Source: an uncultured Sphingobacteriales bacterium (GTDB lineage Bacteria; Bacteroidota; Bacteroidia; Chitinophagales; Chitinophagaceae). From it: a stretch of 24,000 bases of DNA. The stretch is taken from NCBI GenBank assembly GCA_963823365.1, contig CAWGLH010000007.1:831680-855679 (forward strand), in the 5' to 3' direction. This document shows, piece after piece, positions 2,560-22,356 of this stretch; the stretch's first letter is position 1, and the number at the start of each line of letters is the position of its first letter. The position numbers and the translations under genes are program-made. The notes below the pieces were generated by a model. It searched no databases and was not told where the DNA came from. It was given only the letters and a program-made list of their open reading frames with translations.

Positions 2560-3070
2560 ATGGCCAGACCAGTTCCGTCAGACTACCCTGTTTTTTATGA
2601 AACGTATATTAAACTGGTAAGTGAAGAGGACCTGGTGCAGACTATGCGTTTATCGCTGGAAGAAATTGTAGATTTCCTGGAAGGAATTGCCCCTGACAAA
2701 GCTGAATACAGGTATGCGGAAGGCAAGTGGTCTGTAAAGGAATTACTGCAACATATCATTGATACAGAAAGGATATTTTCTTACAGGGGATTATGTTTTG
2801 CAAGGGGTGAAGCAGCAATCTCTTCCCGGCTTTGATGAAAATGCCTATGCACAACATGCTGATGTAAGCGGAAAGACCCTTAAGGATTTAAAAGAGGAAT
2901 TACTTATCGTCAGGGAATCCGTATTTATGATGTTCCGGGGATTTACTCCTGAAATGCTTAACAGCACAGGAATTTCAAATAATAAACAAGTTACAGTTAA
3001 CGCGATTGGTTACATGATTATCGGTCATGTTCGCCATCACTTTAATATACTCAGGGAAAGATACTTGTAA
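2560..3070 (+). CDS. DinB-family (DinB_2-like four-helix-bundle) protein. One frameshift as assembled.
   Basis: ORFs 2560-2835 and 2759-3070 join at about 2804-2811 (gggg/aa runs): ..WSVKELLQHIIDTERIFSYRGLCFARGE / KQQSLPGFDENAYAQH..IGYMIIGHVRHHFNILRERYL. The spaced His residues (HIID, HVRHH) are typical of the DinB metal triad. The gene starts 3 nt after the S8 stop. Confidence 0.75.
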
Positions 3071-5268
3071 AAAGCAAATGGTCAATGTGATCAGGCATTT
3101 CTTCACATTGACCATTTTATATTGCTCGAAGGCAATTATTATTTCTTCACCAGTGCAGATTTCCCGGATCATATCATTCATTACGTTTACACTCTCACCC
3201 AGGTAAATATCCTTGCTCAGGTTTTTAATCCACTGTTTCCTTCTTTCGAGTTTATCGTTGTCTGCTGATAATTTTTTCTCATCGTTGGGAATCAGCGCAA
3301 GCTCAAGCGCCGGAGCTGTTTTATTGATTTCTTCAACTTTTTTAATCGTTGCTTTTATCTGCTTTTGCTCTGCCCTGTATTTCTCCATGTTGAGTGAATA
3401 TTCTTTGTCATTGATCTTGGCCAGCCAACTGGTACTTTCCTTGATGGCATTGAATGACTGATTCGTGCTTATTCGTCCGAGGCTGGCGGTCCTGATAGAG
3501 GGTAAATCATAATATGATTTACCTGACACATAATCTGCTTTTTTAATCTCATCCCATGGCAATGCATCGGGATTATCTTTTTCACGATACTTAAGGTATT
3601 CAAGCTGGTCAGGTATAACAATATCAGGAGTAACACCTTTTAATTGTGTGGAGCCTCCGTTAATGCGGTAAAATTTCTGAAGGGTCAGTTTTACTGTACC
3701 CAGTTCCTGTGCACTGCTCGCTATAAGTCCGGTATTTCCTTCAAGGCCAATATTACGCTGAACCGTTCCTTTACCGTAGGTTGATGTACTGCCAATGATT
3801 ACACCGCGGTTATAATCCTGAATGGCCGCAGCAAAAATCTCAGAAGCAGAGGCACTGAAAATTCATTCACCATTACTGCAAGAGGTCCATCATATAAAAC
3901 AGTTTTGTCCCTGTCGCGCAATATATTCGGATTTCCATCCCTGTCTTTAACCTGAACAATCGGGCCTTCATCAATAAAAAATCCGACCATCTGCACCACA
4001 TCATACAAGGATCCGCCGCCATTATTCCGCAGGTCCATAATTATTCCGTCAACATTCTGTTCTTTGAGTTTCAGTGATTTCACGTGCCACATCCATTGCA
4101 CTCCTTGCACCATTGGGCCTTTCCCAATCGGCATAAAATTCAGGCAGCCATATATAACCGATCTTCTTGTCATTTTCATTGATGATCGCACTTTTGGCAA
4201 AAGTTTCATCAGTCACTGATTTCATCCCTTATCATGGTCACGATTTTAATAGAGCCGTCTGCTTTTTTAAGGGTAAGCCTTACTTCTGTGCCTTTCTTAC
4301 CGCGAATCAGTTTTACCGCATCTTCCACGTCAAATCCGGTCAGGTCAACTGGTTCTTCAGCACCCTGGGCAACTTTCATAACAGCATCACCTACCTGGAT
4401 TTGCTGTGATTTCCATGCAGGACTTCCGGCCACAAGGGTGGCAATTTTTATGCTTCCGTCATCGGCCCTAAGTGAAGCACCAATGCCAAAAAAACGTCCG
4501 CTCATCTGTTCATCAAAATATCTTTTTTCTACAGGAGGGAAAAATGTGGTGTGGGGATCCATGGTAGTGGTAATGGTATTCACCAGCATATTAAACCTTT
4601 CCTCTTCAGTAAACTTATTATTCAGCCTTTCAAAATTCCTTCCCATGATCTTGATTACCTTTTCCCGCGCTTCTTTTTCCAGTTCAGCATCTGTTTTTAC
4701 TACAAAGCCTTCAGTGCCTTTATTCTGTTCCCTGGCATCCAGCAAATCAGCATATCGCTCCAGCGCCAGATATTTAAGCTTTTTCCTCCAGGAATCTTTT
4801 CGGGCAGTTTCGTTGGCCGGGAAATCAAGTTTATCCCCGTCAATGATGACTGTTTCATCAACGTGTATAATTGAAACGGGGTGGCAAGGATGGTCTTTAT
4901 ACAAACCAGAAACTTCTCCCAGCCTTTTCTGGTAGATCACATTAGCAGCAGTAAAAAACTGCATGGGAGCACCATGAAGTTCATCATCAATCCTTGTTTC
5001 AAATTTCTTCAGTTCTTTTATATCTGACTGAAGGAAAATATTTTTATCGGGATCAAGGATTGCCCATGAATTTCTTGAAAATCTGTTTGGAAAAATTATC
5101 ATCAATCTTTTGGGGACTGTAATGCGCCTCTTCAAGCATTTCAGCAACCTGCTGAAAAATCTTTTCATATTTGGTGGGAGGATTTCCATTCCCCAATGTG
5201 GTAAAAGCAATCAGGATTCCACCTATAACAATAGCCATTAAAACAGGGAGGGATTTTTTGCTAAACAT
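2975..5268 (-). CDS. S41 carboxy-terminal processing (tail-specific) peptidase with PDZ domain. At least 4 frameshifts as assembled, and the true stop is probably near 3139-3141.
   Basis: Minus-strand pieces 5053-5304, 4209-5210 and 3799-4209, plus a start-less frame 3563-3858 continuous with 2975-3562. Motifs: N-terminal anchor MFSKKSLPVLMAIVIGGILIAF; PDZ-like GSPAWKSQQIQVGDAVMKV; S41 core IIMDLRNNGGGSL and FSASASEIFAAAIQDYNRGVIIGSTSTYGKGTVQ (Ser/Lys dyad region, readable only after a shift near 3858). Other shifts lie near 5060, 4209 and 4085. The start is ATG 5266-5268 (alternatively 5296-5298). Confidence 0.85.
3076..3117. terminator. Bidirectional intrinsic terminator hairpin between the convergent DinB and S41 genes
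   Basis: Perfect 15-bp inverted repeat AAATGGTCAATGTGA (3076-3090) / TCACATTGACCATTT (3103-3117) with a 12-nt loop. T-rich sequence follows it on both strands (tttatatt on plus; ttgcttttt on minus). Confidence 0.7.
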
Positions 5269-5418: not shown

Positions 5419-5493
5419 GGAGGATGATGGGGCTCGAACCCACGACCCTCAGAACCACAATCTGATGCTCTAACCAACTGAGCTACACCCTCC
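5419..5493 (-). tRNA. tRNA-His (anticodon GTG), 75 nt, with genomically encoded G-1. The 3' CCA is not fully encoded.
   Basis: The reverse complement folds by hand into a cloverleaf: G(-1) GAGGGTG TA GCTC AGTTGGTTA GAGC A TCAGA TTGTGGT TCTGA GGGTC GTGGG TTCGAGC CCCAT CATCCTC C. The acceptor and T stems pair with one G-U each. The anticodon loop TTGTGGT gives GTG, and G-1 opposite C73 is the His identity element. Confidence 0.95.
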
Positions 5494-6424: not shown

Positions 6425-9057
6425 ATGAGAGTTTTTTTGCTGCTGTCCATGAACCTGTTGCTTTTAGGTGCTTTTGCACAGGTTCCTTCTGCTGGAGGAG
6501 CCAGGGGTGGCGGTCAGAACATGAATATGGGCAGGTTCTACGGCAAAGTGGTGGATTCAAAGAATAATAAGCCGGTTGATGCCGCCTCTGTACAGTTAAT
6601 TCAAAGCAAATTCGATACCGTCCAAAAGAAAAGGGTTGACCAGGTAATTTCCGGCCAGCTTACCAAAGCCAATGGTGATTTCAGCCTGGAGAACCTCCCG
6701 ATCATGGCCCAGTTTAAACTCAAAATATCGGCTATCGGTTATGTAGCCTTATGAACAAGCCCTCAAATTTGAAATCAAGCCTGGAGGCGATATGTCTCAA
6801 ATGATGAATATGGTCGATAAAGACCTTGGTAACCTGAAACTTTCTCCGGATATAAAATCACTTGCAGAAGTTACTGTTACGGCTACAAAGCCATTCATGC
6901 AAATGGGTGTTGACCGCAGGATTTTCAATGTGGAAAAAAGCCTTGTATCAGCCGGCCAAACTGCGACAGAACTGATGCGGAATATCCCTGGATTGAATGT
7001 TGATATTGATGGTAATGTAACCTTAAGAAATGCAGCACCAACCATCTTCGTTGATGGAAGGCCAACTACCCTTACACTTGACCAGATTCCGGCAGATGCC
7101 ATTGAAAGCGTGGAAATGATTACCAATCCTTCTGCAAAATATGATGCATCGGGTGGAATGGCGGGAATCCTGAATATCGTACTGAAGAAAAACCGGAAAG
7201 CCGGCTATAACGGTAATGTCAGGGCTGGTATTGATTCCCGTGCAAAAATTAATCTGGGCGGTGATATCAATGTTAAACAGGATAAGGTAAATGTATTTCT
7301 GAGCGGAATGTATAACCAGCGGAAATCCATTGGCGAAGGACAATCCATCCGGACAGAAAAATATACCACACCCAATATACTGATCAACCAGACCAACAAC
7401 CCGATCAGTGATGGTTCTTTTATGTTCCTCAGGGGTGGCTTTGATTATTTTATTGATAACCGAAATACCATTACCATTTCAGGTAATTATGTAAAAGGGG
7501 AGTTTAACAATTCAGACTTGTTTAACATTGATACGGATTCAGTTGATAATATCATCAACTCTGATCTTTCAACCCGGACAACCAACAATGAGTTCTTTTT
7601 CAGGAATATCAATAGTGCATTGGGATATAAAAGACTTTTCAAGAAAACCGGCCGTGAGTTAACGGCTGATATCAATTACAGCAGGGCAAAGAATGGAAGT
7701 GAGGGTCTTTTTATCAACCAATATTATGATGACCTAAATAACCCGAAAGGTATACCCATTGAACAATCATCGGAAGGAAATGGAAACAATAATTTCTTTA
7801 CTTTCCAGTCTGATTTTGTAACACCGCTTTCTGAGAAAACCAAATTAGAAGTAGGTGTCCGCGCTGCCATCAGGAATGTACAGAGTGAAAACCTGAATTA
7901 TATTCAGAATCCAATTACCGGTGAACTGGTTCCTTTTGCAGCCATTAATGCCAATTATAAATATGAGGACCGTGTGCTGGCAGCATATTCAACCATTATC
8001 CGGAAAGATCGGCAAAGAATTCACGTACCTTGAGGACTCAGGATGGAAAGTTCAAATTATGAAGGAACACTGCTTACCAATGATTCCAGTTTCAGCAATT
8101 CCTTTCCATTCAGTTTCTTTCCAAGCATTTTCCTGACAAAGAAATTGAAGCAATAATGACTGACCTGCAGTTCAGTTATTCAAGAAGAATCAACAGGCCG
8201 AATTTCTTCCAGTTGCTGCCATTTGTTGATTACTCCGATTCACTCAATATCACCAGGGGTAATCCCAACCTGGTTCCTGAATTCACCAATTCATGGAATT
8301 GTCTTACCAGAAAAATTTCAAGAAAAATCACAGCCTCATGTTCTCAGGCTGGTTAAAAATGACCAATAACCTGATCACCAGGGCCCAGGTAAAAGAACCC
8401 AGTTCTGTTCCGGGAAGGGATGTGATTATCAATACTTATATCAATGCGAATAACAGCCGTGCATATGGTCTGGAAGTAACTTCAAAAAATCCGCTGGCCA
8501 AATGGCTTGATGTGACTACCAACCTGAATGTGTATAATTCCAAGATCAATAATACCGTTGACACCACATTTAGTCAGCGGGGATCTATGGAGTTTCTTTG
8601 CCAAAATGAACCTGGCCTTTAAACTTCCGAAAAACTATTCCATTCAATTGAGTGGTGATTACAGGAGTAAAACCATTCTGCCACAGGGCGGCGTGGTGGT
8701 CGTGGTGGTGGAGGCGGTGGTGGCGGTGGTGGCGGCGGATTCGGCGGTTTCACACAAACTACCTCACAGGGATATAATAATCCCAGTTATGCTGTTGATT
8801 TTGCTATCCGGAAAGAATTCATGAAAGAAAACAAAGCATCCCTTTCACTTAGTGTAAATGATATTTTCAAAACCAGGGTGTCTTCCGTGCATTCTGAATC
8901 TGAATTTTTTGTCCAGGATTATACCAGGAGGCAGGACTGGAGGGTAGTACGATTAAACTTTAATTACCGCTTTGGTAAATTTGATATGTCACTCTTCAAA
9001 CGCAAAAATACCAGGAGCGGTGCAGATGGCATGCAGGAAGGTATGCAGATGCAATAA
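6425..9057 (+). CDS. Outer-membrane beta-barrel family protein: CarboxypepD_reg-like N-domain, plug-like region and PF14905-type barrel, TonB-dependent-receptor-like. 7 frameshifts as assembled.
   Basis: Signal peptide MRVFLLLSMNLLLLGAFAQ, then GRFYGKVVDSKNNKPVDAASVQL, then plug-like NIPGLNVDIDGNVTLRNAAPTIFVDGRPT..ESVEMITNPSAKYDASGGMAGILNIVLKK. Barrel motifs: RRINRPNFFQLLPFVDYSDSLNITRGNPNLVPEF. C-terminus: VVRLNFNYRFGKF. Seven ORF pieces (6425, 6792, 7921, 8156, 8293, 8528, 8821) join colinearly, with frame changes near 6755, 7985, 8030, 8155, 8295, 8580 and 8690. Confidence 0.85.
8687..8751 (+). repeat. GGN trinucleotide tract encoding an RGG/poly-Gly loop (RRGGRG12FGGF) inside the OM barrel gene
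   Basis: In the frame continuous with the C-terminal piece, cgg cgt ggt ggt cgt is followed by 12 consecutive Gly codons (ggt/ggc/gga), then ttc ggc ggt ttc. The ORF-track reading GGVVVVVVEAVVAVV is the same tract in the wrong frame. Confidence 0.8.
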
Positions 9058-13582: not shown

Positions 13583-14084
13583 TCATTCGAGGTAGGCCCC
13601 CGTTATCCTGTCTCCTTCAACGTCAAGGTATATATGTTCCTGCAGCGTGGTGGAAAGTGAGATGCCAACATAATCTGGCCTGACAGGATATTTCTTATGG
13701 CTTCTTTCCACCATCACCAGTATCTGTATTTTTTTCGGGTAGCTTTGAAGTAAAGGCTTAAGGGCATATAATCAGTGTTTTACCACTATTCGCAACATCA
13801 TCAACAAGGATCACCACCTTATCATTAAAATCAATTTGCGTATCCATTTCCACTGCTGAAGGGTGCTTTTTATCGAGTGACATGCCAATCAATTGGAAAC
13901 TGGTGTCAGAAATCTCCTTCAGCAATTCCATTAGTTTTTGTGCAATGAGGTAACCGTTTTGTTTAATGCCTGCAAGGATTACATGAGATTCCCCAATGTT
14001 GTTTTCCAGGATTTCATAGGCCATTCTCTTCAGCTTCTTTTCCGCCACATCGGCACTTAGTATATAATTTTTTTCAGTCGACAT
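13583..14084 (-). CDS. Phosphoribosyltransferase-family protein (PyrR-like). One frameshift as assembled.
   Basis: The PRPP-binding loop VVILVDDVANSGKTL lies in ORF 13758-14084. After a shift near 13755-13765 the homology continues: YALKPLLQSYPKKIQILVMVERSHKKYPVRPDYVGISLSTTLQEHIYLDVEGDRITGAYLE, with its stop at 13583-13585. That stop directly abuts the stop of the convergent gene (13580-13582). Confidence 0.75.
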
Positions 14085-14137: not shown

Positions 14138-15454
14138 ATGGAATTGATTCAGCAAATACTGTTTGTTCTGCTGGCAGGGGCTGCCATTTGGTTCTTTGCC
14201 AGGAAAACAGGTGAATTAAAAAGGAACATCAACCTGGGCAGGCCGGAAGACTTTAGTGGCCACACCGGTGAACGTTGGAAGAATGTTTTGCTGTTAGCCT
14301 TTGGCCAGAAGAAAATGTTCAGAAAACCACTGGTGGCCATCATGCACTTTGTTATCTATGCAGGTTTCATTATCATCAACCTGGAAGTGCTTGAAATCAT
14401 GCTCGATGGAATCCTGGGAACGCACAGGTTGTTTGCCGCACCATTGGGTGCTATTTATCCCTGGTTGATTAATGCCTTTGAATTCCTGGCTATAGGTGTG
14501 ATCATCGTTTGTATTATATTCCTGGCAAGAAGAAACCTCCTGAAGGTTAAAAGGCTGAACCAGGAGGAACTGGATGGCTGGCCACGCAATGATGCCAATA
14601 TCATACTGGTGACAGAAATTATCCTGATGAGCCTTTTTCTCACGATGAATGCCAGTGACACCATTTTGCAATCAAGGGCCTACGGTCATTATGCAAACCA
14701 CCTCACAGGCAATTTCCTCTTCTCCGGAATCCTGCAGACTCTTTTTCTCAATATGTCAGATGCTTCACTGGTGGTTCTGGAGAGATCTGCATGGTGGTTG
14801 CACATCATCGGGATTTTTGCTTTCCTGAACTACCTTCCATGGTCAAAACACCTTCATATCATATTTGCTTTTCCCAATGCATATTACGCCAGGCTGGCCC
14901 CGCAGGGTAAGATGCAGAATATGCCTGACATACAAAAGGAAGTTTTGTATGCCATGCAGCCTGAACTGATTCCGGCCGGTGCGGAGGATCAACCCAAACG
15001 GTTTGGGGCAAAGGATATCATGGACTTAAGCTGGAGGAACCTGCTCGATGCCTATAGTTGCACCGAATGCGGGCGCTGCACAGCTGCCTGTCCGGCTAAC
15101 ATCACAGGTAAAAAACTTTCACCCCGGAAAATCATGATGGATACCCGCGACCGGATGGAGGAAGTGGGTAAAAACATCCGGCTAAACGGAAATTTTAATG
15201 ACGATGGGAAATCGCTGCTGCATGATTATATCAGCCAGGAAGAAATAAGGGCATGTACTACCTGCAATGCCTGTGTTGAAGAGTGCCCCGTTTCAATAAG
15301 TCCGCTTGATATCATATTACAATTACGCAGGTTCCAGGCTATGGAAGAAAGTAATGTTCCTGTAGAATGGAGCGGCATGTTCAGCAATACAGAAAACAAC
15401 TTTGCACCGTGGAAATTTTCTCCGGATGACCGTGACCGTTGGGTAGAGGGTTAA
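14138..15454 (+). CDS. Membrane-bound Fe-S protein: polytopic N-terminal domain plus 2x[4Fe-4S] ferredoxin domain (N-terminal half of an HdrD/DsrMK-like oxidoreductase). No CCG domain.
   Basis: Intact 438-aa ORF with about 5 hydrophobic helices carrying conserved-looking His residues (MHFVIYAGFIIINL, WWLHIIGIFAF, SKHLHIIFAFP). Two CX2CX2CX3CP motifs follow: CTECGRCTAACP and CTTCNACVEECP. Confidence 0.85.
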   Translation: MELIQQILFVLLAGAAIWFFARKTGELKRNINLGRPEDFSGHTGERWKNVLLLAFGQKKMFRKPLVAIMHFVIYAGFIIINLEVLEIMLDGILGTHRLFAAPLGAIYPWLINAFEFLAIGVIIVCIIFLARRNLLKVKRLNQEELDGWPRNDANIILVTEIILMSLFLTMNASDTILQSRAYGHYANHLTGNFLFSGILQTLFLNMSDASLVVLERSAWWLHIIGIFAFLNYLPWSKHLHIIFAFPNAYYARLAPQGKMQNMPDIQKEVLYAMQPELIPAGAEDQPKRFGAKDIMDLSWRNLLDAYSCTECGRCTAACPANITGKKLSPRKIMMDTRDRMEEVGKNIRLNGNFNDDGKSLLHDYISQEEIRACTTCNACVEECPVSISPLDIILQLRRFQAMEESNVPVEWSGMFSNTENNFAPWKFSPDDRDRWVEG

Positions 15455-16110
15455 CTGTTTTCTTCCTGCATTGTGGAAATGAGGTCCTTATGGCGTGCCA
15501 TTCTTATCGCTTGTATGATGGCGGTAACCAGGAAAATCAAGCCTATAACAAGGTTAACCACATCCTGGCGTGTATTCAGTTTTTCCACCAGCAGCCTGCC
15601 CCCGAATATAAATATGCAATGACCAATGATGGTACCTATGCCAATACCCGCCATATAAGTGAGGAACACACTTTCTTTGGGCGGCAGCAGATTCTTTGAC
15701 GCCAGTATTGAACTCCAGCCAAACCAGAAAGGTACCTGTAAGGGATTAATGGCACTCATGCCAACCCCCAGCCAGAAACGGTGAATGGTATTTGACAAAA
15801 TGGGACTTGCCTTTACTGATGGGTTCAACGCTGTATAAAAACTGGAAACTGCCAGCGCCATGATCAAAGCCAGGGTAAACCACTCCATACCCAGTAACAG
15901 TCTTTTATGTTTTCTGAACCAATTCATCGCCACAAGGGTAATCCTGACATAAATGATTTCCACCAGCACTGCCCCCGCGGAAAAATATAATGCCGGCCTG
16001 ATCCCGTCTGACAATGAAATCTGCATGGCTGAAATATTCAGCGTGCCCATGGGAAGTGTTCCCAGGAAACTGATGAACATACCGGTCATGAATAAGCGAA
16101 AAAAAGGCAT
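15451..16110 (-). CDS. LysE/RhtB-family amino-acid-type exporter
   Basis: Intact 219-aa ORF, hydrophobic throughout (about 6 helices). The N-terminus FISFLGTLPMGTLN and overall size fit the LysE superfamily. Its stop overlaps the Fe-S gene stop within GTTAAC (15450-15455). Confidence 0.75.
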   Translation of the reverse strand: MPFFRLFMTGMFISFLGTLPMGTLNISAMQISLSDGIRPALYFSAGAVLVEIIYVRITLVAMNWFRKHKRLLLGMEWFTLALIMALAVSSFYTALNPSVKASPILSNTIHRFWLGVGMSAINPLQVPFWFGWSSILASKNLLPPKESVFLTYMAGIGIGTIIGHCIFIFGGRLLVEKLNTRQDVVNLVIGLIFLVTAIIQAIRMARHKDLISTMQEENS

Positions 16111-16118
16111 TAATGAAA

Positions 16119-17185
16119 TTATTGAATTTGTGCCGACATGGCAAGCAGTATTTCCGAGTTTTTCTTCTCGTCCCGGAACATTTTAACCCCATCCCTGAAT
16201 GAAAGGTAGGGAATGCCCTTCTTATGGTTTTTCCGGCTGATTTTCTCCATTATACTCCAGTGGCGTATGATTTCTTTCCATGCAAAAAAAACGGAATGAG
16301 ACGGGTCATACATATGGGTTGGTTCAGCGCCGGCGCCATTTACTTCAATAATTACGAGATCCTTGCCCTCCTTTAACCTGTCCCAGCTGAGATACCGTAT
16401 ATCGAACCTCCCGTAATAAAAACCAGGGATTGATTTACTGATTGCATCAATGGTATCTTCAAGCTGCTTATCACACCAGGCAGTACAATCAAGGAACTTT
16501 GAACCCCGTGCATGATTTCCATAAGGCGAAACCACTCTTTGTTCGCCTTCCGGAATCACTTCATCCAGCCGGCCATGGTGCATGGCTTCAAGGCTTTTCG
16601 AGGTACATGATACTCCTGCTGTCGGCTTTCAGCAATTGAAGGAGGTTATCTTTTCCATTACCCGTTACTGTTAAAAACTGCTTGCCAACAATTCCTGATA
16701 TATGGCCTTTTTCAGCATCCGGGTAACGGTAATAAAAAATACCTGCTTCACACGGGTAATCAATATACTCCTGGATATGATAATCAAGCAGGGCCTTATG
16801 GGAATAATGGATCACATCATTTTCATTTTGAAGCAATTTTACCCCCCTTCCCTTCCCGCCAATATCCGGCTTACCGATGAGCGGGAATTTCAAGCCTGCT
16901 GTCCCGATGCCTTTTATGACTTCTGCGGCATCGGTTGAATGTTTGAAATGCAGTGTGCCGGGATATAAATTTTTTGGCAGGATTTCATGTATGTTTTTTT
17001 TTGATTCCCCGATCAATCCGCCATTTTCAATAGAGGGGTTTGATGCTGAAAAAAAGAAAAAAGATCTTGACCGGAGGCAAAAGAATAACCAGGCAGGAAT
17101 GGTCCAGAAATATACTGCGCCAAAAGACCAGTATTCCCAGTTTAAACAGCCTGATGAAAAAAGGATGATGAAAGATTTTTTTCAT
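16119..17185 (-). CDS. ATP-grasp family ligase (RimK/Ddl-like amidoligase) with an N-terminal hydrophobic anchor. 2 frameshifts as assembled.
   Basis: Motifs: FPLIGKPDIGGKGRGVKLL (P-loop-like ATP-grasp lysine region) and LVIIEVNGAGAEPTHMYDP (Mg/ATP E-x-N). ORFs 16588-17016 and 16119-16583 join at the aaaa run near 16590 (..SIMYLEK/LEAMHHGRLDEV..). The N-terminus MKKIFHHPFFIRLFKLGILVFWRSIF..LLPPVKIFFLFF starts at ATG 17183-17185 and joins after a shift near 17035-17045. The gene starts 5 nt after the NRDE stop and ends 8 nt before the LysE start. Confidence 0.75.
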
Positions 17186-17190
17186 ATTTA

Positions 17191-17919
17191 TTAATGGACG
17201 GAGGGACAGGGACTGAACATCAATCCTGAAATGGATAAGCGGTTATTGCGAAGGTCCTTGTAAATCATTTCACCGTTATCTTTTCCAATTTTCATTCCGG
17301 TTATACTTACCGTATATAACTCGCCGTTGCGGTTCATCAGGAGATCATTATGCTGATCGCCCTCGCCCGTAAACTGGTGAAAGTGCAGAATATCTTCAAG
17401 CACCGGATCCTTGCAGGCAATAAGCCATTCACGGAACCAGCCTTCACGGCGGGTCCTTATATCCCGGTCATATAATGTTACAGACGACCATATATGGGGC
17501 CTGGTCTCATCTTTGCGGGATATATGCCTGTTTTCTCCATCCCATACTCCTTCCAGTAGTTTACCATTATCCCAGCAAACTACTGTAAATGGCTCAATGT
17601 TATACAGGTCCAAAGACAAAAAAGCCGATGCAGGTGAAGGTTCAACGATCAGGTCAAGCAATACAAGGCCGCGGCTTTTCCGGTATGGCGGATCTGCGAT
17701 ATGTGCATCCGTTCCGCCATTTAATAATACCACAGCGTTGCCATTTGCATGCATGGCAATCCAGGTGCCTCCTGCCTCGGCGTCCTTAGGATATAAAACA
17801 TGGCCACCTGGTGATGAATATGCTACTGGTTCATGCGCATCCATACGGGTATGTTTCTCATCCCTGTTTGATACCAGGAAGATTTTATCCCTGGAAGGAA
17901 TAAAGGTTACTGTGCACAT
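17191..17919 (-). CDS. NRDE-family protein (PF05742 / TANGO2-like, Ntn-hydrolase fold with N-terminal Cys)
   Basis: Intact 242-aa ORF beginning MCTVTFIPSRDKIFLVSNRDE. It has Cys2 as the candidate Ntn nucleophile and the eponymous NRDE motif. Its start overlaps the upstream DinB gene by 13 nt. Confidence 0.8.
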   Translation of the reverse strand: MCTVTFIPSRDKIFLVSNRDEKHTRMDAHEPVAYSSPGGHVLYPKDAEAGGTWIAMHANGNAVVLLNGGTDAHIADPPYRKSRGLVLLDLIVEPSPASAFLSLDLYNIEPFTVVCWDNGKLLEGVWDGENRHISRKDETRPHIWSSVTLYDRDIRTRREGWFREWLIACKDPVLEDILHFHQFTGEGDQHNDLLMNRNGELYTVSITGMKIGKDNGEMIYKDLRNNRLSISGLMFSPCPSVH

Positions 17920-18407
17920 GACCTTTTATGCTTGACCGTTGCAGAAGCTACCCCGTAGGTTTCCGGTAATTCAATTTGAGTAAGTTCCTTCAGTCCAACC
18001 CTGATCAGTGCCATATGATGAATGGTATGTTCAAGATTATACACGATTTCACGGTAATAGTTGGTCGGGAATTGCATGAGGTTGGAGGAATCATCGTTAT
18101 AAACGCCTTCAAGCATCAGTGATTTATCGGGTTTACCCAGGCCCTGGTGTATTTCCCGGAGTTGCAGCATGGCGAATGCCATGTCCCTTTCTATCTGCTG
18201 GTCCCTTTTCCTGTTTTCGTAATTGACTATACCTGACTGATAGCCTTTTTCAAGGCATAAAAACATTTCAATGATATGCCTTACGTGCTGGCCGATGGTG
18301 GCTTCACTGAGATTCTGGCAGGGCTTTGCATACTCATCCGGACTAAGTGTTTCAAGGGATCCGGATAATTGAACAAAAACATTATTCACGGCTTGTTGCA
18401 ATTGCAT
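17907..18407 (-). CDS. DinB-fold protein (second in the window)
   Basis: Intact 166-aa ORF. It has a helical pattern with spaced His residues (IGQHVRHIIEMF ... YNLEHTIHHMALIRV), typical of the DinB/YfiT metal-binding triad. Confidence 0.65.
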   Translation of the reverse strand: MQLQQAVNNVFVQLSGSLETLSPDEYAKPCQNLSEATIGQHVRHIIEMFLCLEKGYQSGIVNYENRKRDQQIERDMAFAMLQLREIHQGLGKPDKSLMLEGVYNDDSSNLMQFPTNYYREIVYNLEHTIHHMALIRVGLKELTQIELPETYGVASATVKHKRSCAQ

Positions 18408-18445: not shown

Positions 18446-18987
18446 TTAATCCGCAAAGACTGACAAAAATATAATCAAATTGTCACTAAGTGAAATGCTT
18501 GATCCGCCAACATTGAATTCCCTCCGGTTAATACTGAATGACCCCGTAAACCTTGTTCCTCCTTGCTCCAGCGTTTTCGGTAAATGGAAAACTTATCTGT
18601 TTGATCCTTGTCCTTGATAAACAGTTTACCCGTTACCATGTATCTTCCGTCACTGGCCCGGGTCACCTTTTCTGATACAAAGGAAATTGCAGGAAACTTC
18701 TCAATATCCAGATAATCAGGTTTCTTCAGATGCCTGTCCCTCGCCCCGATCCCTGTATTAACCGAAGAAGCATCAACCCTTGCTTCGAAAGATGCTGCCC
18801 CGGGATTATTTTTATCAAACGTAATATTCCCCGAAAGCCCTGAGAAACTGCCATTCACCGCTATGCCCAGGTTCCTGATCCTGAATTTCACGGTAGACTT
18901 GCCACCCACTAAACGTAGCTGGCCAAGGCCGCTTAAGCAGGTCAGCATTACAACAGCAAAAAAAATCAGGTACCTGGAAATCCACAT
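18446..18987 (-). CDS. YceI-family (polyisoprenoid/lipid-binding) periplasmic protein. 2 frameshifts near the 3' end as assembled.
   Basis: Signal peptide MWISRYLIFFAVVMLTCLSG, then STVKFRIRNLGIAVNGSFSGLSGNITFD..SVNTGIGARDRHLKKPDYLDIEKFPAISF..YMVTGKLFIKD. The family C-terminus is recovered only after shifts near 18590 and 18545: SFPFTENAG.. then FTGSFSINRREFNVGGSSISLSDNLIIFLSVFAD, stop 18446-18448. The track ORF ends at 18475. Confidence 0.8.
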
Positions 18988-18992
18988 GTTTT

Positions 18993-19724
18993 TTAATTAA
19001 ACCCATAGCTGATACCCAGTCCGAAATTATTGGCTTTATTCCTGAACCTGTCCACTTCAGTTCCATCCGGAGCCACCTGGATAATGTTGTTAGTCTGGTA
19101 TTCAATAAATACAAACTGGTAAATCGCTTTAATCCCTATTCTCCTGCCAACCTGGTATTTAACGAAAAACTCGGAATTAAGATTACCACGGTCATGGTCA
19201 CCTGTGAGCAAAAGATTCAGCGAAGCCGGAACAGCTTCAGGTTCAGTCAGGGTATTTCCATTACTGGTCAGAATAGCCCCGCTTTTCTGACCGAAAGAAA
19301 TTCCAATCACATCAATGTTTACACCTCCGTACAACCTTGGCGTAATGTGATATCCCATATTAAAACTAAGGTTCAGCATATTGACCAATGGCCGCTGCAC
19401 GGTCAGGGTATCCATATTTTCCGTTTTTTGACCGGCGAACACAATCAGGAATGGGAAAGTAAAACTGCGGGTAAGGCTGGCCGGACCAGCCGTCACAAAA
19501 TCCTTTTTCTCGCCGTAATATAATGTCCATCTGGCGCCCGCTCCTATTTCAAACTTCCTGTTTTTACCTGTTCTCCAGTTGTGCACATAAGATGCAGCAA
19601 AGGTGCCCTGTTCACTTCCAAAGGTTGCAGAAAGGTCGGCAAACCGGTTAACCCGCGGTAATTGTTGAGCGCTAACAGAAAGGGAAAATGATAAAAAGAA
19701 AACGATGGTGCTGAACTTAATCAT
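18993..19724 (-). CDS. Small outer-membrane beta-barrel (porin-like) protein of unknown function
   Basis: Intact ORF. From ATG 19724 it reads MIKFSTIVFFLSFSLSVSAQ (signal peptide). Alternating hydrophobic/polar strands follow, with frequent G/Y/F/N, and the C-terminus is NNFGLGISYGFN. It ends 5 nt before the YceI start. Confidence 0.65.
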   Translation of the reverse strand: MIKFSTIVFFLSFSLSVSAQQLPRVNRFADLSATFGSEQGTFAASYVHNWRTGKNRKFEIGAGARWTLYYGEKKDFVTAGPASLTRSFTFPFLIVFAGQKTENMDTLTVQRPLVNMLNLSFNMGYHITPRLYGGVNIDVIGISFGQKSGAILTSNGNTLTEPEAVPASLNLLLTGDHDRGNLNSEFFVKYQVGRRIGIKAIYQFVFIEYQTNNIIQVAPDGTEVDRFRNKANNFGLGISYGFN

Positions 19725-19781
19725 TGAACTACTAATTATAATGGAGCATGGAGAATTATGAAAATGAATCCCTGTAAGCAA

Positions 19782-20200
19782 TCAGTTAATGGTTGCAGAA
19801 CCAAATAAAACGGTAAATTGTTCACACCAGATAAGTACATGCTTATATTCCGCAAAATCAGGCATTCCCGTGAATTACATAATTCTGGTTTCCGCTTGAC
19901 TGATTTCAATGACCCAAGGCTGATGAATGAGGATGCATTGAGATCTTTCGAAAGGTAAACCCTGAGATCAGGTCCGTTTGTACTGGTAAAATTTTCAAGC
20001 CTTAATTCCTTCCTGCCGTTATCCTCAAATATTTTTGCAGTACCCTGAACATTATGTCCTGGGGTAGACGTAAAAGTACCTTTTACAATTTGCATACCCG
20101 GAGGTAGCATTTCATCAACAGGCTGGTCCGGCGTATTATTTTCCTTTTTGCAGGAAAGAAGAAATACAATGAACGACATCATTAACAGGAATCGAAGCAT
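19782..20200 (-). CDS. DM13-domain lipoprotein. 2 frameshifts near the 3' end as assembled.
   Basis: MLRFLLMMSFIVFLLSC carries a lipobox. The DM13 pattern is GTFTSTPGHNVQGTAKIFEDNGRKELRLENFTSTNGPDLRVYLSKD. The conserved end is recovered after shifts near 19895 and 19850: SGNQNYVIHGNA / PDFAEYKHVLIWCEQFTVLFGSATIN, stop 19782-19784. The track ORF runs on to 19736. Confidence 0.7.
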
Positions 20201-20263: not shown

Positions 20264-20953
20264 CTGCTGCTTTTAGCAGACCATTAACATCAGGAATGAA
20301 GATTTCTTTCCGGTTCATATTCAAACAGAGCCAAGGGACTGCGCTTCATTGATAATGGATGTTACAGTCTGGCGGGATGAACCAATTAATCGCGCAATAT
20401 CATCATGTGTTAGAAAACTTTCCATCCTGAATTCCTTTGTTGATCCGGAAAAGCCCTGCTGAATGGCCAGGTTATAAATGAACCCAAGCAGCCTGCTCCG
20501 CACATCCTTATGCAAAAGATTGACGATCCGGTTTTCCGCACTGCGCAGTTTCTGTCCTATCTTTTTACTATAATGTATTGCAAGGCCTGGTTTTTGTGCA
20601 AGTATTTTTTCAAAGTCGCTGATATTAAAGGCGCAGAGACTCACATCGGTTTTATGTGCCTGGGCAAATTCTCCATGAATGTTCTGGCGGGTTAATGTGA
20701 ATTGACCAAACACTTCCCCTTTTTGAATGATTTCCCTGATGACCTCCTCTCCTTTTTCATTGATAAAACCTATTCGAATGAAACCTTCCTTTATAAAGAA
20801 AAGTTTATCCAGCATAAAGGATTCAAAATATATATAGTCGCCTTTCCTTGCTTCAAGAAAATTGTGAACCACCTTAATGTCTTCATATTCCTCATCAGTG
20901 AGATGTGACCAAAGGTCATAATTCCTGAGCAGGACCATTTTATCCGCATGCAT
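20253..20953 (-). CDS. Crp/Fnr-family transcriptional regulator (cNMP-binding domain plus C-terminal HTH). About 2 frameshifts in the last 100 nt as assembled.
   Basis: cNMP-barrel pattern: YIYFESFMLDKLFFIKEGFIRIGFINEKGEEVIREIIQKGEVFG. HTH: LTHDDIARLIGSSRQTVTSIINE. The track ORF stops at 20321. A family-typical tail (LKRSPLALFEYE / NRKEIFIPDVNGLLKAADVS) is readable after two shifts and ends at TAG 20253-20255. This 3' reconstruction has moderate confidence. Confidence 0.8.
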
Positions 20954-21840: not shown

Positions 21841-22356
21841 ATGAACTTAGCATACGATCATTTACTGCCCGATGAATTTCATGAAGGATCCAGGGTATGG
21901 ATATACCAGTCTGACCGGCTTTTCACCCTCAGTGAAGCACTGGATATTGAAGTTATGCTGGAAAATTTTGTGGCAGGATGGCAATCTCATGGCGATCCGG
22001 TGAAAGGATTTGCGACACTTTTTTTCGGGCAGTTCATTGTGCTCATGGCTGATGAAACTGCAACGGGTGTAAGTGGTTGCAGTACGGACAGTTCTGTGAG
22101 GCTGATGAAACAAATAGAAGAAAAATTCAGGGTAAACCTGTTTAACAGGCAACTGCTTGCCTTTGTGATAAAAGATAAGGTCCAGCTCCTGCCGGTATCA
22201 CAGGTTAATTATGCCATAGTCAATGGATTTATTACAGGTGATACCCTTTATTTCAACAATACAGTATTAACGAAAAAAGAACTCCTCGAACACTGGATCA
22301 TACCTATGCAGAAAAGCTGGTTGAAATCGAAATTACCAGGTAAGGTTTCATCCTGA
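21841..22356 (+). CDS. Conserved hypothetical protein. From memory, this family is often labelled ABC-transporter-ATPase-like in Bacteroidota, but it has no Walker motifs.
   Basis: Intact 171-aa ORF with good coding character (RVWIYQSDRLFT..WQSHGDPVKGFATLFFGQFIVLMADETATGVSGCSTDSSV). No P-loop is visible, so the function is unknown. Confidence 0.6.
   Translation: MNLAYDHLLPDEFHEGSRVWIYQSDRLFTLSEALDIEVMLENFVAGWQSHGDPVKGFATLFFGQFIVLMADETATGVSGCSTDSSVRLMKQIEEKFRVNLFNRQLLAFVIKDKVQLLPVSQVNYAIVNGFITGDTLYFNNTVLTKKELLEHWIIPMQKSWLKSKLPGKVSS

Follow-up and report, generated by a model that had tools for sequence, protein, structure and literature searches.

A recurrent gene module joining a TANGO2-family protein to a DinB-fold protein, a putatively membrane-tethered ATP-grasp ligase and a LysE-type translocator in Bacteroidota and Acidobacteriota

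We analysed a 24,000-nucleotide stretch of DNA from an uncultured Sphingobacteriales bacterium (Chitinophagaceae in the GTDB lineage; contig CAWGLH010000007.1, positions 831,680 to 855,679 of the forward strand; hereafter the window), which carries four tightly packed genes on the minus strand. In the order of transcription they encode a DinB/YfiT-fold protein (17907-18407, 166 aa), an NRDE/TANGO2-family protein of the cysteine N-terminal nucleophile (Cys-Ntn) type (17191-17919, 242 aa), an ATP-grasp carboxylate-amine ligase (16119-17185, frame-broken, 354 aa after correction) and a six-helix translocator of the LysE/RhtB type (15451-16110, 219 aa). This arrangement is conserved far beyond chance, because a 13-nt overlap between the DinB and NRDE genes is found in 77 of 80 related loci and the gene set is found in 13-16 of 24 lineage groups, and the four genes very probably constitute a genuine functional module. 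The comparison of loci showed that the ATP-grasp gene is the hub of this module and that the DinB and NRDE genes, which overlap translationally, form a strictly co-occurring pair. Each of the component superfamilies is known; their combination, that is NRDE/TANGO2 and DinB together with a distinct, putatively membrane-tethered ATP-grasp protein and LysE or DedA, was not found in the literature searched, where no description joins NRDE/TANGO2 with ATP-grasp or DinB. This agrees with an earlier note on the same DNA, made from the letters alone, which had proposed an undescribed system.

The four open reading frames were re-read from the window and lie exactly where the earlier note had placed them, with the same spacers of -13, 5 and 8 nt: the stop of the DinB gene and the start of the NRDE gene overlap at 17907-17919 on the minus strand (ATGTGCACAGTAA), 5 nt separate NRDE from ATP-grasp (17186-17190) and 8 nt separate ATP-grasp from LysE (16111-16118). 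The geometry that had been taken to imply co-transcription and translational coupling is conserved, and the 13-nt overlap is also present in Pedobacter, Mucilaginibacter and Chitinophaga. The start of the NRDE gene, ATG-TGC-ACA-GTA-A, is invariant and lies within the overlap, hence the DinB protein ends in a conserved but disordered C-terminal ...CAQ.

For the species scan, one genome was taken per species. At least 531 species encode the ATP-grasp protein, and the best 80 loci, labelled almost all as Chitinophagaceae, Sphingobacteriales or unclassified Bacteroidota, were analysed. In 79 of the 80 species loci the DinB, NRDE and ATP-grasp genes are direct neighbours, arranged in this order. 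Counts corrected for relatedness were obtained from 120 loci with adequate flanks, whose ATP-grasp proteins form 24 lineage groups at 60% identity. DinB and NRDE genes lie near the ATP-grasp gene at 103 loci (16 lineage groups), LysE at 75 loci (16 groups), any translocator, either LysE or a fused DedA, at 83 loci (19 groups), and all four functions at 73 loci (13 groups). Among the 120 loci NRDE never occurs without DinB, and six lineage groups have ATP-grasp and LysE only, without DinB or NRDE. Together, these two observations suggest a ligase-translocator core with a strictly paired DinB-NRDE add-on. The genes keep company, often as fusions, in hundreds of bacteria of soil and water. The module was found in Chitinophagales, Sphingobacteriales, Flavobacteriales and Acidobacteriota, so that the synteny across related genomes expected of a joint system holds across phyla. 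Membership of the module is kept even where the order is shuffled, as in metagenome loci with the orders LysE-DinB-NRDE-ATP-grasp and DinB-[DedA~ATP-grasp]-NRDE (~ marks a fusion). The claim that LysE belongs to the module stands with a restriction: it adjoins ATP-grasp in 16 of the 24 lineages, but it is not universal and can be replaced by a fused DedA/VTT domain. One metagenome-assembled genome labelled Brevundimonas vancanneytii (L045, CALRLC020000002.1) has a typical Chitinophagaceae-type YceI-DinB-NRDE-ATP-grasp locus, and is probably a mislabelled or contaminated bin.

The functional link among the ligase, the Ntn hydrolase, the DinB protein and the translocator, as had been proposed, is strongly supported by recurrent gene fusions. 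NRDE~ATP-grasp fusions of about 595 aa, named 'NRDE family protein' by NCBI, are frequently encoded by cultured Pedobacter, Mucilaginibacter and Chitinophaga, complete genomes among them; there a DinB gene, again with the 13-nt overlap, precedes the fused gene, and LysE comes after it. In total, a TANGO2-family protein is covalently joined to ATP-grasp in hundreds of proteins. LysE~ATP-grasp fusions occur in Psychroserpens and others, although a metagenome scan for such fusions mostly returned unfused ATP-grasp/LysE neighbours and DedA fusions. DedA/VTT~ATP-grasp proteins were also found, with abhydrolase~VTT~ATP-grasp forms in Blastocatellia (Acidobacteriota). Two rare ATP-grasp fusions, P0343 (589 aa) and P0272 (558 aa), are of other kinds: a YqcI/YcgG domain (PF08892, E=3.8e-52) is attached at the C-terminus in one, and MORN repeats are present in the other.

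We considered whether the operon could be dead in this genome, with the ATP-grasp gene a pseudogene, or whether the four genes could be inherited neighbours without joint function. Three-frame translation showed that the ATP-grasp gene is spread over three frames, and the two frameshifts that cause this speak for a dead operon. We compared the window with a relative (L174) that is 89.5% identical over 13.7 kb, with exactly the same gene order and all genes intact. The gapped alignment of the four-gene stretch contains only two net indels, both extra single bases in the window, at ~17143-17146 and at 16598. The corrected ATP-grasp protein is up to 78% identical over 100% of its length to intact homologues of 351-356 aa; that of L174 has 356 aa. 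Frameshifts are not confined to this gene but are scattered over many well-conserved genes of the window: ±1 indels split the genes for an S8 protease, a DinB_2 protein, an S41 tail-specific protease, a TonB-dependent receptor/OMP_b-brl_3 protein, PyrR, YceI and a DM13 protein (indel-split stretches 900-2557, 2560-3070, 2975-5210, 6425-8824, 13758-14084, 18475-18987 and 19736-20200). The split genes that lie in the part covered by L174 (PyrR, YceI and DM13) are intact there (YceI of 179 aa, 38 nt upstream of DinB, and DM13 of 132 aa). The ratio of nonsynonymous to synonymous substitution rates (dN/dS) against L174 is lowest for the corrected ATP-grasp gene (0.075), followed by LysE (0.13), NRDE (0.20) and DinB (0.25). 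Since the L174 copy is intact and dN/dS is 0.075, the insertions in the ATP-grasp gene are most likely assembly errors, pointing to an indel-prone assembly and not to a decaying genome; with the window-wide indels, these data led us to reject pseudogenisation. As for adjacency by descent, much of the local synteny (PGM, DUF2279, PyrR, Fe-S/CCG) is simply inherited within Chitinophagaceae, but the fusions and the conservation across phyla in shuffled orders exclude this as the explanation for the four genes. Either form of this alternative is thus very improbable.

The hub of the module has the three-domain ATP-grasp fold. The AlphaFold2 (AF2) model of the corrected protein has a predicted local distance difference test (pLDDT) score of 86.7 and a predicted template-modelling (TM) score (pTM) of 0.86, and a Foldseek search against the PDB gave 225 matches at E<=1e-3, with identities of 10-17%. 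CphA1/2, GshF, Ddl/VanA/VanG and ArgX were on top (E 3e-9 to 1e-6, probability 1.0). At the sequence level the similarity is far lower: the family profile gave only marginal E-values against PDB sequences, although all matches were ATP-grasp enzymes (GshF, E=0.047), and the window copy has no match in Pfam and only sub-threshold matches to cyanophycin synthetase and RimK in NCBIfam (15-17 bits against cut-offs of 143-877). Among 110 family representatives, 48 match the RimK model PF08443 (best 1.5e-9), 23 match PF02222, 22 match TTL and only 6 match the C-terminal Ddl model PF07478, weakly (best E 6e-4). Because this spread favours RimK over Ddl, the protein is, judged from its sequence, a member of a distinct RimK-like family and not an orthologue of Ddl, RimK or GshB. 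The family is large, with 3,222 clusters at 50% identity when E<=1e-3 is required and 1,366 at E<=1e-30.

Three closer identities were tried and rejected. A D-Ala-D-Ala ligase is disfavoured by the lack of a Pfam match, by the 10-14% identity to Ddl structures and by the replacement of the N-terminal domain with a hydrophobic segment; some databases name homologues of the protein 'D-alanine--D-alanine ligase'. Membership in the RimK family is contradicted by a TIGR00768 score of 17 bits against a cut-off of 143.4, and membership among glutathione synthetases or GshF by the lack of a GSH-S_ATP match, the likeness to GshF being one of fold, with a marginal sequence match. The bit scores far below the cut-offs and the marginal matches to PDB sequences agree with the expectation that the protein does not nest within Ddl or RimK.

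Residue conservation was assessed in 24 close and 110 distant members, using the corrected numbering. Invariant or nearly invariant are K105 in the Gly-rich loop KPDIGGKGRGV, Q138-E139 of the QEY hinge, the GNHARG motif, R259/D261 and E280/N282, so by this measure the protein carries a complete ATP/Mg catalytic set. The E-x-N Mg/ATP motif IIEVNGAGAEP that had been read from the letters is indeed present, with E280 at 16346-16344 and N282 at 16340-16338, both conserved. In its fold, its Gly-rich loop, QEY hinge, GNHARG motif and R-x-D/E-x-N Mg site, and in the most frequent Pfam match of its family, the protein resembles RimK-type ligases (RimK, LysX-ArgX, GshB-GshF and the cyanophycin synthetase G-domain). 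Unlike them, it shares only 10-17% identity with the known structures, is missed by Pfam in its window copy, has obligate NRDE/DinB partners and membrane-protein fusions, and has the pre-ATP-grasp domain replaced by about 70 residues including a conserved hydrophobic 22-mer.

These first ~70 residues contain the motif W-E-Y/F-W-P ... Y-x-P ... R-x-R-S-x-F-F-x-A-x-N-P-x-I-x-x-G-G-x-x-G-E-S-K, which is kept down to ~32% identity. The hydrophobic stretch, encoded at 17074-17139 on the minus strand (W16-L37, WEYW..Y..P...), is exactly 22 residues long in 84 of 97 family representatives; it is 40% aromatic, has conserved prolines at +4 and +11 and is flanked by net charges of +2.2 before and +1.8 after it. 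In fusion proteins its position is the junction to LysE, DedA/VTT or NRDE. From these statistics and the fusions we inferred that the 22-mer is a putative re-entrant (monotopic) membrane anchor. A canonical single-pass helix is incompatible with a cytoplasmic NRDE protein fused upstream, with the two conserved prolines and with basic residues on both flanks. Accordingly, of the membrane anchor suggested in the earlier note the hydrophobic N-terminus stands, whereas a plain anchor helix does not fit the segment statistics.

The NRDE protein matches PF05742 with E=1.9e-12 (48.3 bits against a cut-off of 22.6; residues 1-120 aligned). Its Cys2 codon lies at 17916-17914 and the N18-R19-D20-E21 motif at 17868-17857. 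All 76 full-length orthologues begin with MCTV, MCTVS or MCTVA; C2, R19 and E21 are invariant, D20 is present in at least 90% of the sequences, and R25 and R83 are conserved. The MCT start, which would expose Cys2 as the nucleophile, is therefore a property of the whole orthologous set. The profile of the NRDE protein had no match in the PDB. The crystal structure of human TANGO2 was interpreted as that of a Cys-Ntn hydrolase, whose closest relatives are lipid-amide hydrolases and acyltransferases, namely bile-salt hydrolase (BSH), NAAA, acid ceramidase and IAT (PMC13044924). The window protein shares with human TANGO2 and with HtpA of Shewanella oneidensis the PF05742 match, the N-terminal Met-Cys2 and the N-R-D-E motif, and its spacing from the NRDE Asp to R25 equals that from Asp27 to Arg32 in the human protein (PMC13044924). 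Unlike these two, it aligns to the Pfam profile over the N-terminal 120 residues only, is translationally coupled to a DinB-fold gene and is coupled or fused to an ATP-grasp ligase.

The statement that bacterial NRDE proteins have no assigned function has to be corrected, since there is a report that the bacterial TANGO2 homologue HtpA binds heme and enhances the maturation of cytochrome c (PMC10470608), although this role is contested: whether TANGO2 proteins act in heme handling is in dispute, and in the crystal structure of the human protein the heme contacts are nonspecific only (PMC12782551, PMC13044924). By analogy with HtpA, the NRDE protein could be a heme-trafficking chaperone, with neighbour genes unrelated to it. 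Besides the report on HtpA, the DM13 domain encoded upstream (annotated with 'electron transfer' in Pfam) and the Fe-S proteins nearby fit such a role. However, the invariant Cys2, the NRDE motif and the covalent fusion to ATP-grasp speak for an enzyme that belongs to a ligase pathway, the conserved neighbours include no genes for heme or cytochrome maturation, and with the dispute over heme this explanation becomes the most improbable of those weighed here.

The window copy of the DinB-like protein has no match in Pfam or NCBIfam. Its AF2 model (pLDDT 79.6, with a C-terminal tail below 50) shows the DinB four-helix bundle: the ten best Foldseek matches in the PDB are all DinB-like (YjoA 3dka, 3gor, ClbS and others), with a best E of 0.02, probabilities of 0.85-1.0 and TM scores of ~0.55 (0.5-0.57). 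The N-domain of EgtB, DR0053 and mycothiol S-transferase (MST 8f5v, E 1.2, TM 0.52) came lower in the list. In 39+39 sequences H41, H44, H127, H130, H131, E47/E126 and several Arg/Glu residues are invariant. The pattern of a DinB metal site, an early His and H-x3-H in the last helix, is present as H41/H44 and H127-x3-H131, from which metal binding is predicted only. The search for homologues gave 3,195 proteins, of which a few are named DinB family; PF12867 was matched in 3 of 120. The four family assignments made in the earlier note are thus upheld by two routes: NRDE and LysE exceed their Pfam thresholds, whereas DinB and ATP-grasp, the window copies of which have no Pfam match, are placed by structure prediction and Foldseek. 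Searches of PDB sequences with the three soluble proteins had yielded nothing useful. A second, canonical DinB_2 gene (PF12867) lies at 2560-3070 on the plus strand of the window, split by its frameshift into two open reading frames; it has no sequence relation to the DinB-like gene of the operon.

LysE matches PF01810 with E=4.7e-14 (52.8 bits against a cut-off of 25.6), covering profile positions 3-187 of 193. Because there is no conserved cysteine, that is, no alignment column with more than 30% Cys among 51 orthologues, we ruled out an electron conduit of the CcdA/DsbD type. In one Mucilaginibacter-type locus (L087:8785-9879) the LysE reading frame continues without a frame change into a lipoprotein-like signal (…GFASC), followed by a thioredoxin-fold domain that contains a WCPTC motif; this could be a genuine fusion or a pair of genes that no stop codon separates. 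In several loci (L132:9755-10243; L019, L021, L048, L081) LysE is directly followed by a canonical DinB-family gene of ~163 aa (cluster c30; PF05163, E=7.7e-16, with a weak mycothiol-S-transferase match); one of these lineages is without the DinB-like/NRDE pair. A Chitinophagaceae-type locus that lacks DinB and NRDE (L019:5974-9259) has an MFS transporter gene between ATP-grasp and LysE.

In the window the four genes occupy the distal half of an extended array of co-directional genes on the minus strand. Its head is a Crp/Fnr-type regulator (20321-20953; cNMP_binding and HTH_Crp_2), followed by a DM13-domain lipoprotein (19736-20200; PF10517, E=6.9e-7; frameshifted), a predicted outer-membrane beta-barrel-like protein of ~243 aa (18993-19781) and a YceI-like periplasmic lipid/isoprenoid-binding protein (18475-18987; PF04264, E=2.4e-24; C-terminus frameshifted). 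The gap between DinB and its upstream gene is mostly below 80 nt across loci, which makes the four genes, as a rule, the last part of a longer operon. YceI is found upstream at 48 loci and Crp at 46 loci, each in 4-5 lineage groups. The barrel-like protein has no Pfam match; it belongs to a recurrent cluster, 'OMP243', seen at 24 loci. The gene at the corresponding position in Pedobacter (L086), which may be a homologue of OMP243, has a weak OMP_b-brl match. ECF sigma factors lie near the module in 7 lineage groups, DoxX in 13-15 and a periplasmic YHS protein in 12-13; the 'DoxX' profile also catches a 142-aa DM13-type lipoprotein class in 4 groups.

An Rfam search of the window found no riboswitch or other family in or upstream of the operon; its sole match in the 24 kb was a tRNA gene at 5419-5492 on the minus strand. 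Sigma-70 promoter-like and terminator-like sites are as frequent as expected from shuffled sequence. Few DinB orthologues (8 of 72) have the Bacteroidetes -7 motif TAnnTTTG upstream, so that nothing speaks for an internal promoter. At the other end, LysE and a convergent gene for a 438-aa membrane Fe-S protein (14138-15454) share 4 nt at their 3' ends (15451-15454), which leaves no space for separate terminators. The CCG/Fe-S flanking genes had been regarded as compatible with a thiol theme. They are conserved in 4-6 lineage groups, all of the Chitinophagaceae type, and because of this restriction we attribute them to synteny by descent and do not count them as part of the module. Further along the window, a 171-aa protein without a Pfam match is encoded at 21841-22356 on the plus strand; its cluster (c10, ~171 aa) is conserved in many loci of Chitinophagaceae, beside genes for a CCG-domain protein and a radical-SAM (MiaB-like) protein.

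To interpret the module, we propose that it ligates, edits and translocates a product on the cytoplasmic side of the inner membrane and that the acceptor is an N-acyl amino-acid lipid. As a whole this is a tentative proposal, which we hold at somewhat less than an even chance. Its general logic of ligation, editing and translocation at the membrane face is the stronger part and somewhat probable, while an aminolipid acceptor is doubtful, if well worth considering. The ATP-grasp enzyme would be held on the membrane by its 22-residue, proline-kinked, aromatic re-entrant segment, where it would phosphorylate a carboxylate and add an amine, most likely an amino acid, because its nearest relatives (RimK, GshB/GshF, CphA, LysX and Ddl) all extend a carboxylate in this way. 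The NRDE/TANGO2 Cys-Ntn enzyme, in a 1:1 complex with the ligase, would cleave or transfer an acyl-amide bond in the same family of substrates, and the DinB-fold metalloprotein would carry out an accessory metal-dependent step. LysE, or the fused DedA in other lineages, would carry the product across the inner membrane to envelope partners encoded upstream (YceI, the outer-membrane barrel and DM13/DoxX/YHS). The acceptor could be the free carboxylate of an N-acyl amino-acid lipid, for example a glycine lipid converted to Gly-Ser and Gly-Ser-Orn lipids.

We ranked this lipid model first because it alone covers the monotopic segment, the DedA and abhydrolase fusions, the aminolipid acyltransferases in the same operon and the TANGO2-like type of the Ntn enzyme. 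OlsB-like (PF13444) and/or OlsA/PlsC-like (PF01553) genes are in the operon or abut it in 4 of 5 DedA~ATP-grasp lineage groups; in one locus the order is OlsB-OlsA-CoaB-like-YHS-DinB-DedA~ATP-grasp-NRDE (L155), and in another the OlsA-like gene overlaps DinB (L146). In the same direction point a role in lipid flipping, which has been suggested for some DedA proteins, the binding of lipids by YceI proteins and the gene for an outer-membrane barrel upstream. Chitinophaga and Olivibacter have Gly-Ser and Gly-Ser-Orn lipids among their core metabolites (PMC8433624), and the module is carried by these same clades. The enzyme that ligates Ser in the synthesis of Gly-Ser lipids 'remains to be identified'; PF08443 was not among the Pfam models screened in the search for it, and glsAB on its own does not give N-acyl-Gly-Ser (PMC12746155); for the ATP-dependent taurine ligase of ornithine lipid no gene is known either (PMC12971839). 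In a more specific form, which is speculative and rather unlikely, the ATP-grasp family would be the missing head-group ligase of peptide-aminolipids, adding Ser onto glycine lipid to give lipid 430/654 and doreamides, with relatives adding Orn or taurine, and NRDE would be a lipid-amide editing or acyl-transfer enzyme. Producers of lipid 654 include Bacteroides and Porphyromonas.

Several points weigh against the proposal. All functional steps are derived from fold, context and fusions, and the re-entrant topology of the 22-mer from sequence statistics only. Characterised LysE-family members mostly export small amino acids, not lipids. No aminolipid N-acyltransferase lies within 6-10 kb in the Bacteroidota loci, nor is there one in the window; the OlsB/OlsA link is confined to the DedA-fused, Acidobacteria-type branch. 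The proposal assigns no specific role to DinB, DoxX or YHS. Finally, several lineages embed the module among genes for thioredoxin, MsrA/B, AhpC, a Grx-fused disulfide reductase and FMN reductase, a setting that fits a thiol product better.

Such a product, a low-molecular-weight thiol or a cysteine/thiol conjugate that the module would make, process and export, had been favoured in the earlier note and is our close second. ATP-grasp would then act like GshB/GshF, DinB as an S-transferase of the BstA/MST type, NRDE as a conjugate amidase like EgtC, Bca or gamma-GT and LysE like EamB, in order to supply reductant to the envelope or to clear electrophile conjugates from it. The GshF ATP-grasp domain is among the top structural and the marginal sequence matches, and the predicted DinB fold with its His cluster is common to bacillithiol and mycothiol S-transferases. 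Outside the window, the canonical DinB/MST-like gene after LysE in several lineages, the thioredoxin-like lipoprotein in-frame with LysE in Mucilaginibacter, thioredoxin genes adjoining the module in 3-4 lineage groups and the frequent DoxX genes point in the same direction, as do MsrB, an ECF sigma factor, FMN reductase and glyoxalase around a DedA~ATP-grasp locus (L169-171) and two MsrA, AhpC, an AhpD-like protein and a Grx-Grx-disulfide reductase around LysE~ATP-grasp on Psychroserpens-type contigs. In three lineages the cluster includes a standalone CoaB-like gene (L086:5403-6071, L087:5383-6063, L155:~4460-5134). CoaB is the phosphopantothenate-cysteine ligase domain family, and the CoaB-like protein (PF04127, E=2.4e-62) is a second carboxylate-amine ligase in these Pedobacter, Mucilaginibacter and Acidobacteria-type clusters; links to CoA and pantothenate have reportedly been found for human TANGO2, which makes this neighbour intriguing. 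However, the 24-kb window has no thiol-pathway or cysteine-biosynthesis gene and none of these accessory genes, and the redox neighbours are scattered, with 1-4 lineage groups each. A soluble thiol ligase has no obvious need for a re-entrant segment or a DedA fusion, the OlsB/OlsA adjacency in distant relatives is left unexplained, the ATP-grasp protein falls below every glutathione-synthetase family threshold and nothing points specifically to cysteine as a substrate. The thiol product thus keeps some support from redox neighbours elsewhere, but not from the window itself, and we consider it unlikely, though well worth keeping in view.

Less likely still is a soluble product, either a dipeptide like those of L-amino-acid ligases or a short poly-amino-acid like those of RimK and CphA, made and exported by an ATP-grasp/LysE metabolon, in which NRDE trims, matures or provides self-protection and DinB is an accessory. 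The six lineage groups with ATP-grasp and LysE alone suggest that ligase and exporter are the minimal unit, the closest folds are those of polymerising or extending ligases (CphA1/2, RimK/LysX), and the known substrates of the LysE family would suit it. On the other hand, no precursor-supply or immunity genes are conserved nearby, and the DedA/abhydrolase fusions, the OlsB/OlsA adjacency and the periplasmic and outer-membrane partners are not accounted for. We regard as improbable that a polyprenyl-linked envelope precursor is modified in the manner of MurT/GatD, for example by amidation or branching of a lipid II-type carboxylate, with ATP-grasp activating the carboxylate and the Ntn protein supplying the nucleophile. 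The putative membrane tether of the ligase, the fusion to DedA, the binding of polyisoprenoids by YceI-family proteins and the amidotransferase-like pairing of a ligase with an N-terminal-nucleophile enzyme are in line with this idea; some DedA proteins are implicated in undecaprenyl-phosphate recycling. But no mur, fts or cell-wall genes are conserved nearby, ATP-grasp+LysE pairs occur without NRDE, and NRDE/TANGO2 is structurally nearer to the PVA/BSH/NAAA branch than to class II glutaminases (PMC13044924). In order of falling probability, the readings are the lipid model, the thiol model, the soluble peptide, the cell-wall precursor, the dead operon and the heme chaperone. An anti-phage defence system was rejected because none of the four proteins matches any family of the PADLOC models at E<=1e-3.

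None of the known systems we compared combines the same parts. The ergothioneine pathway (EgtA-E) and bacillithiol/mycothiol detoxification also bring together a DinB-fold protein, an amide-cleaving enzyme, an ATP-dependent ligase and an exporter. However, EgtA is not an ATP-grasp enzyme, and EgtC shares the N-terminal Cys with NRDE but is an Ntn enzyme of the class II glutaminase type. Neither the window nor 170 related loci contain the EgtD methyltransferase, an FGE-sulfatase domain on DinB or an EgtC-type glutaminase, and no EgtE, bsh or msh genes lie near the module. An ergothioneine-like pathway was therefore dropped, with EgtD, the FGE domain and EgtE missing. With the aminolipid pathways OlsBA, OlsF and GlsBA the module shares the OlsB-like and OlsA-like genes that are co-operonic with DedA~ATP-grasp, DinB and NRDE on Acidobacteria-type contigs, and head-group ligation requires that an N-acyl amino acid receive a further amino acid at its carboxylate, a reaction of the type that characterises this ATP-grasp clade. 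Yet none of the known aminolipid pathways includes an ATP-grasp, NRDE or DinB protein, and the acyltransferase adjacency of aminolipid clusters is not seen in the window or the Bacteroidota loci. MurT/GatD and PgsBCA follow a similar logic, a membrane ATP-dependent amide ligase with a nucleophile or processing partner and a translocation component, but they use ligases of the Mur type and a class I glutaminase, and we found no relation to the module in sequence or fold.

TANGO2 is a human gene, defects in which cause a metabolic-crisis disorder, and its biochemistry is disputed, with a heme chaperone, an acyl-CoA binder and a Cys-Ntn hydrolase all proposed. The fusion to ATP-grasp and the strict co-inheritance with DinB argue that proteins of this family act as enzymes of amide chemistry at the membrane; a tractable bacterial handle on their biochemistry is at hand in cultured Pedobacter, Mucilaginibacter and Chitinophaga. 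Many members of the ATP-grasp family escape standard domain screens, and such a screen failed to find the Ser ligase of Gly-Ser lipids (PMC12746155). These lipids are immunomodulatory, and the ATP-grasp family is a concrete candidate for two missing aminolipid ligases; if it is indeed the head-group ligase, the module would place the TANGO2 family in an enzymatic pathway for the first time. If instead the product is a thiol, Bacteroidota and Acidobacteriota would have in this module a new redox or conjugate pathway of the envelope. A monotopic ATP-grasp enzyme interchangeably fused to LysE or DedA would be an unusual coupling of synthesis to translocation.

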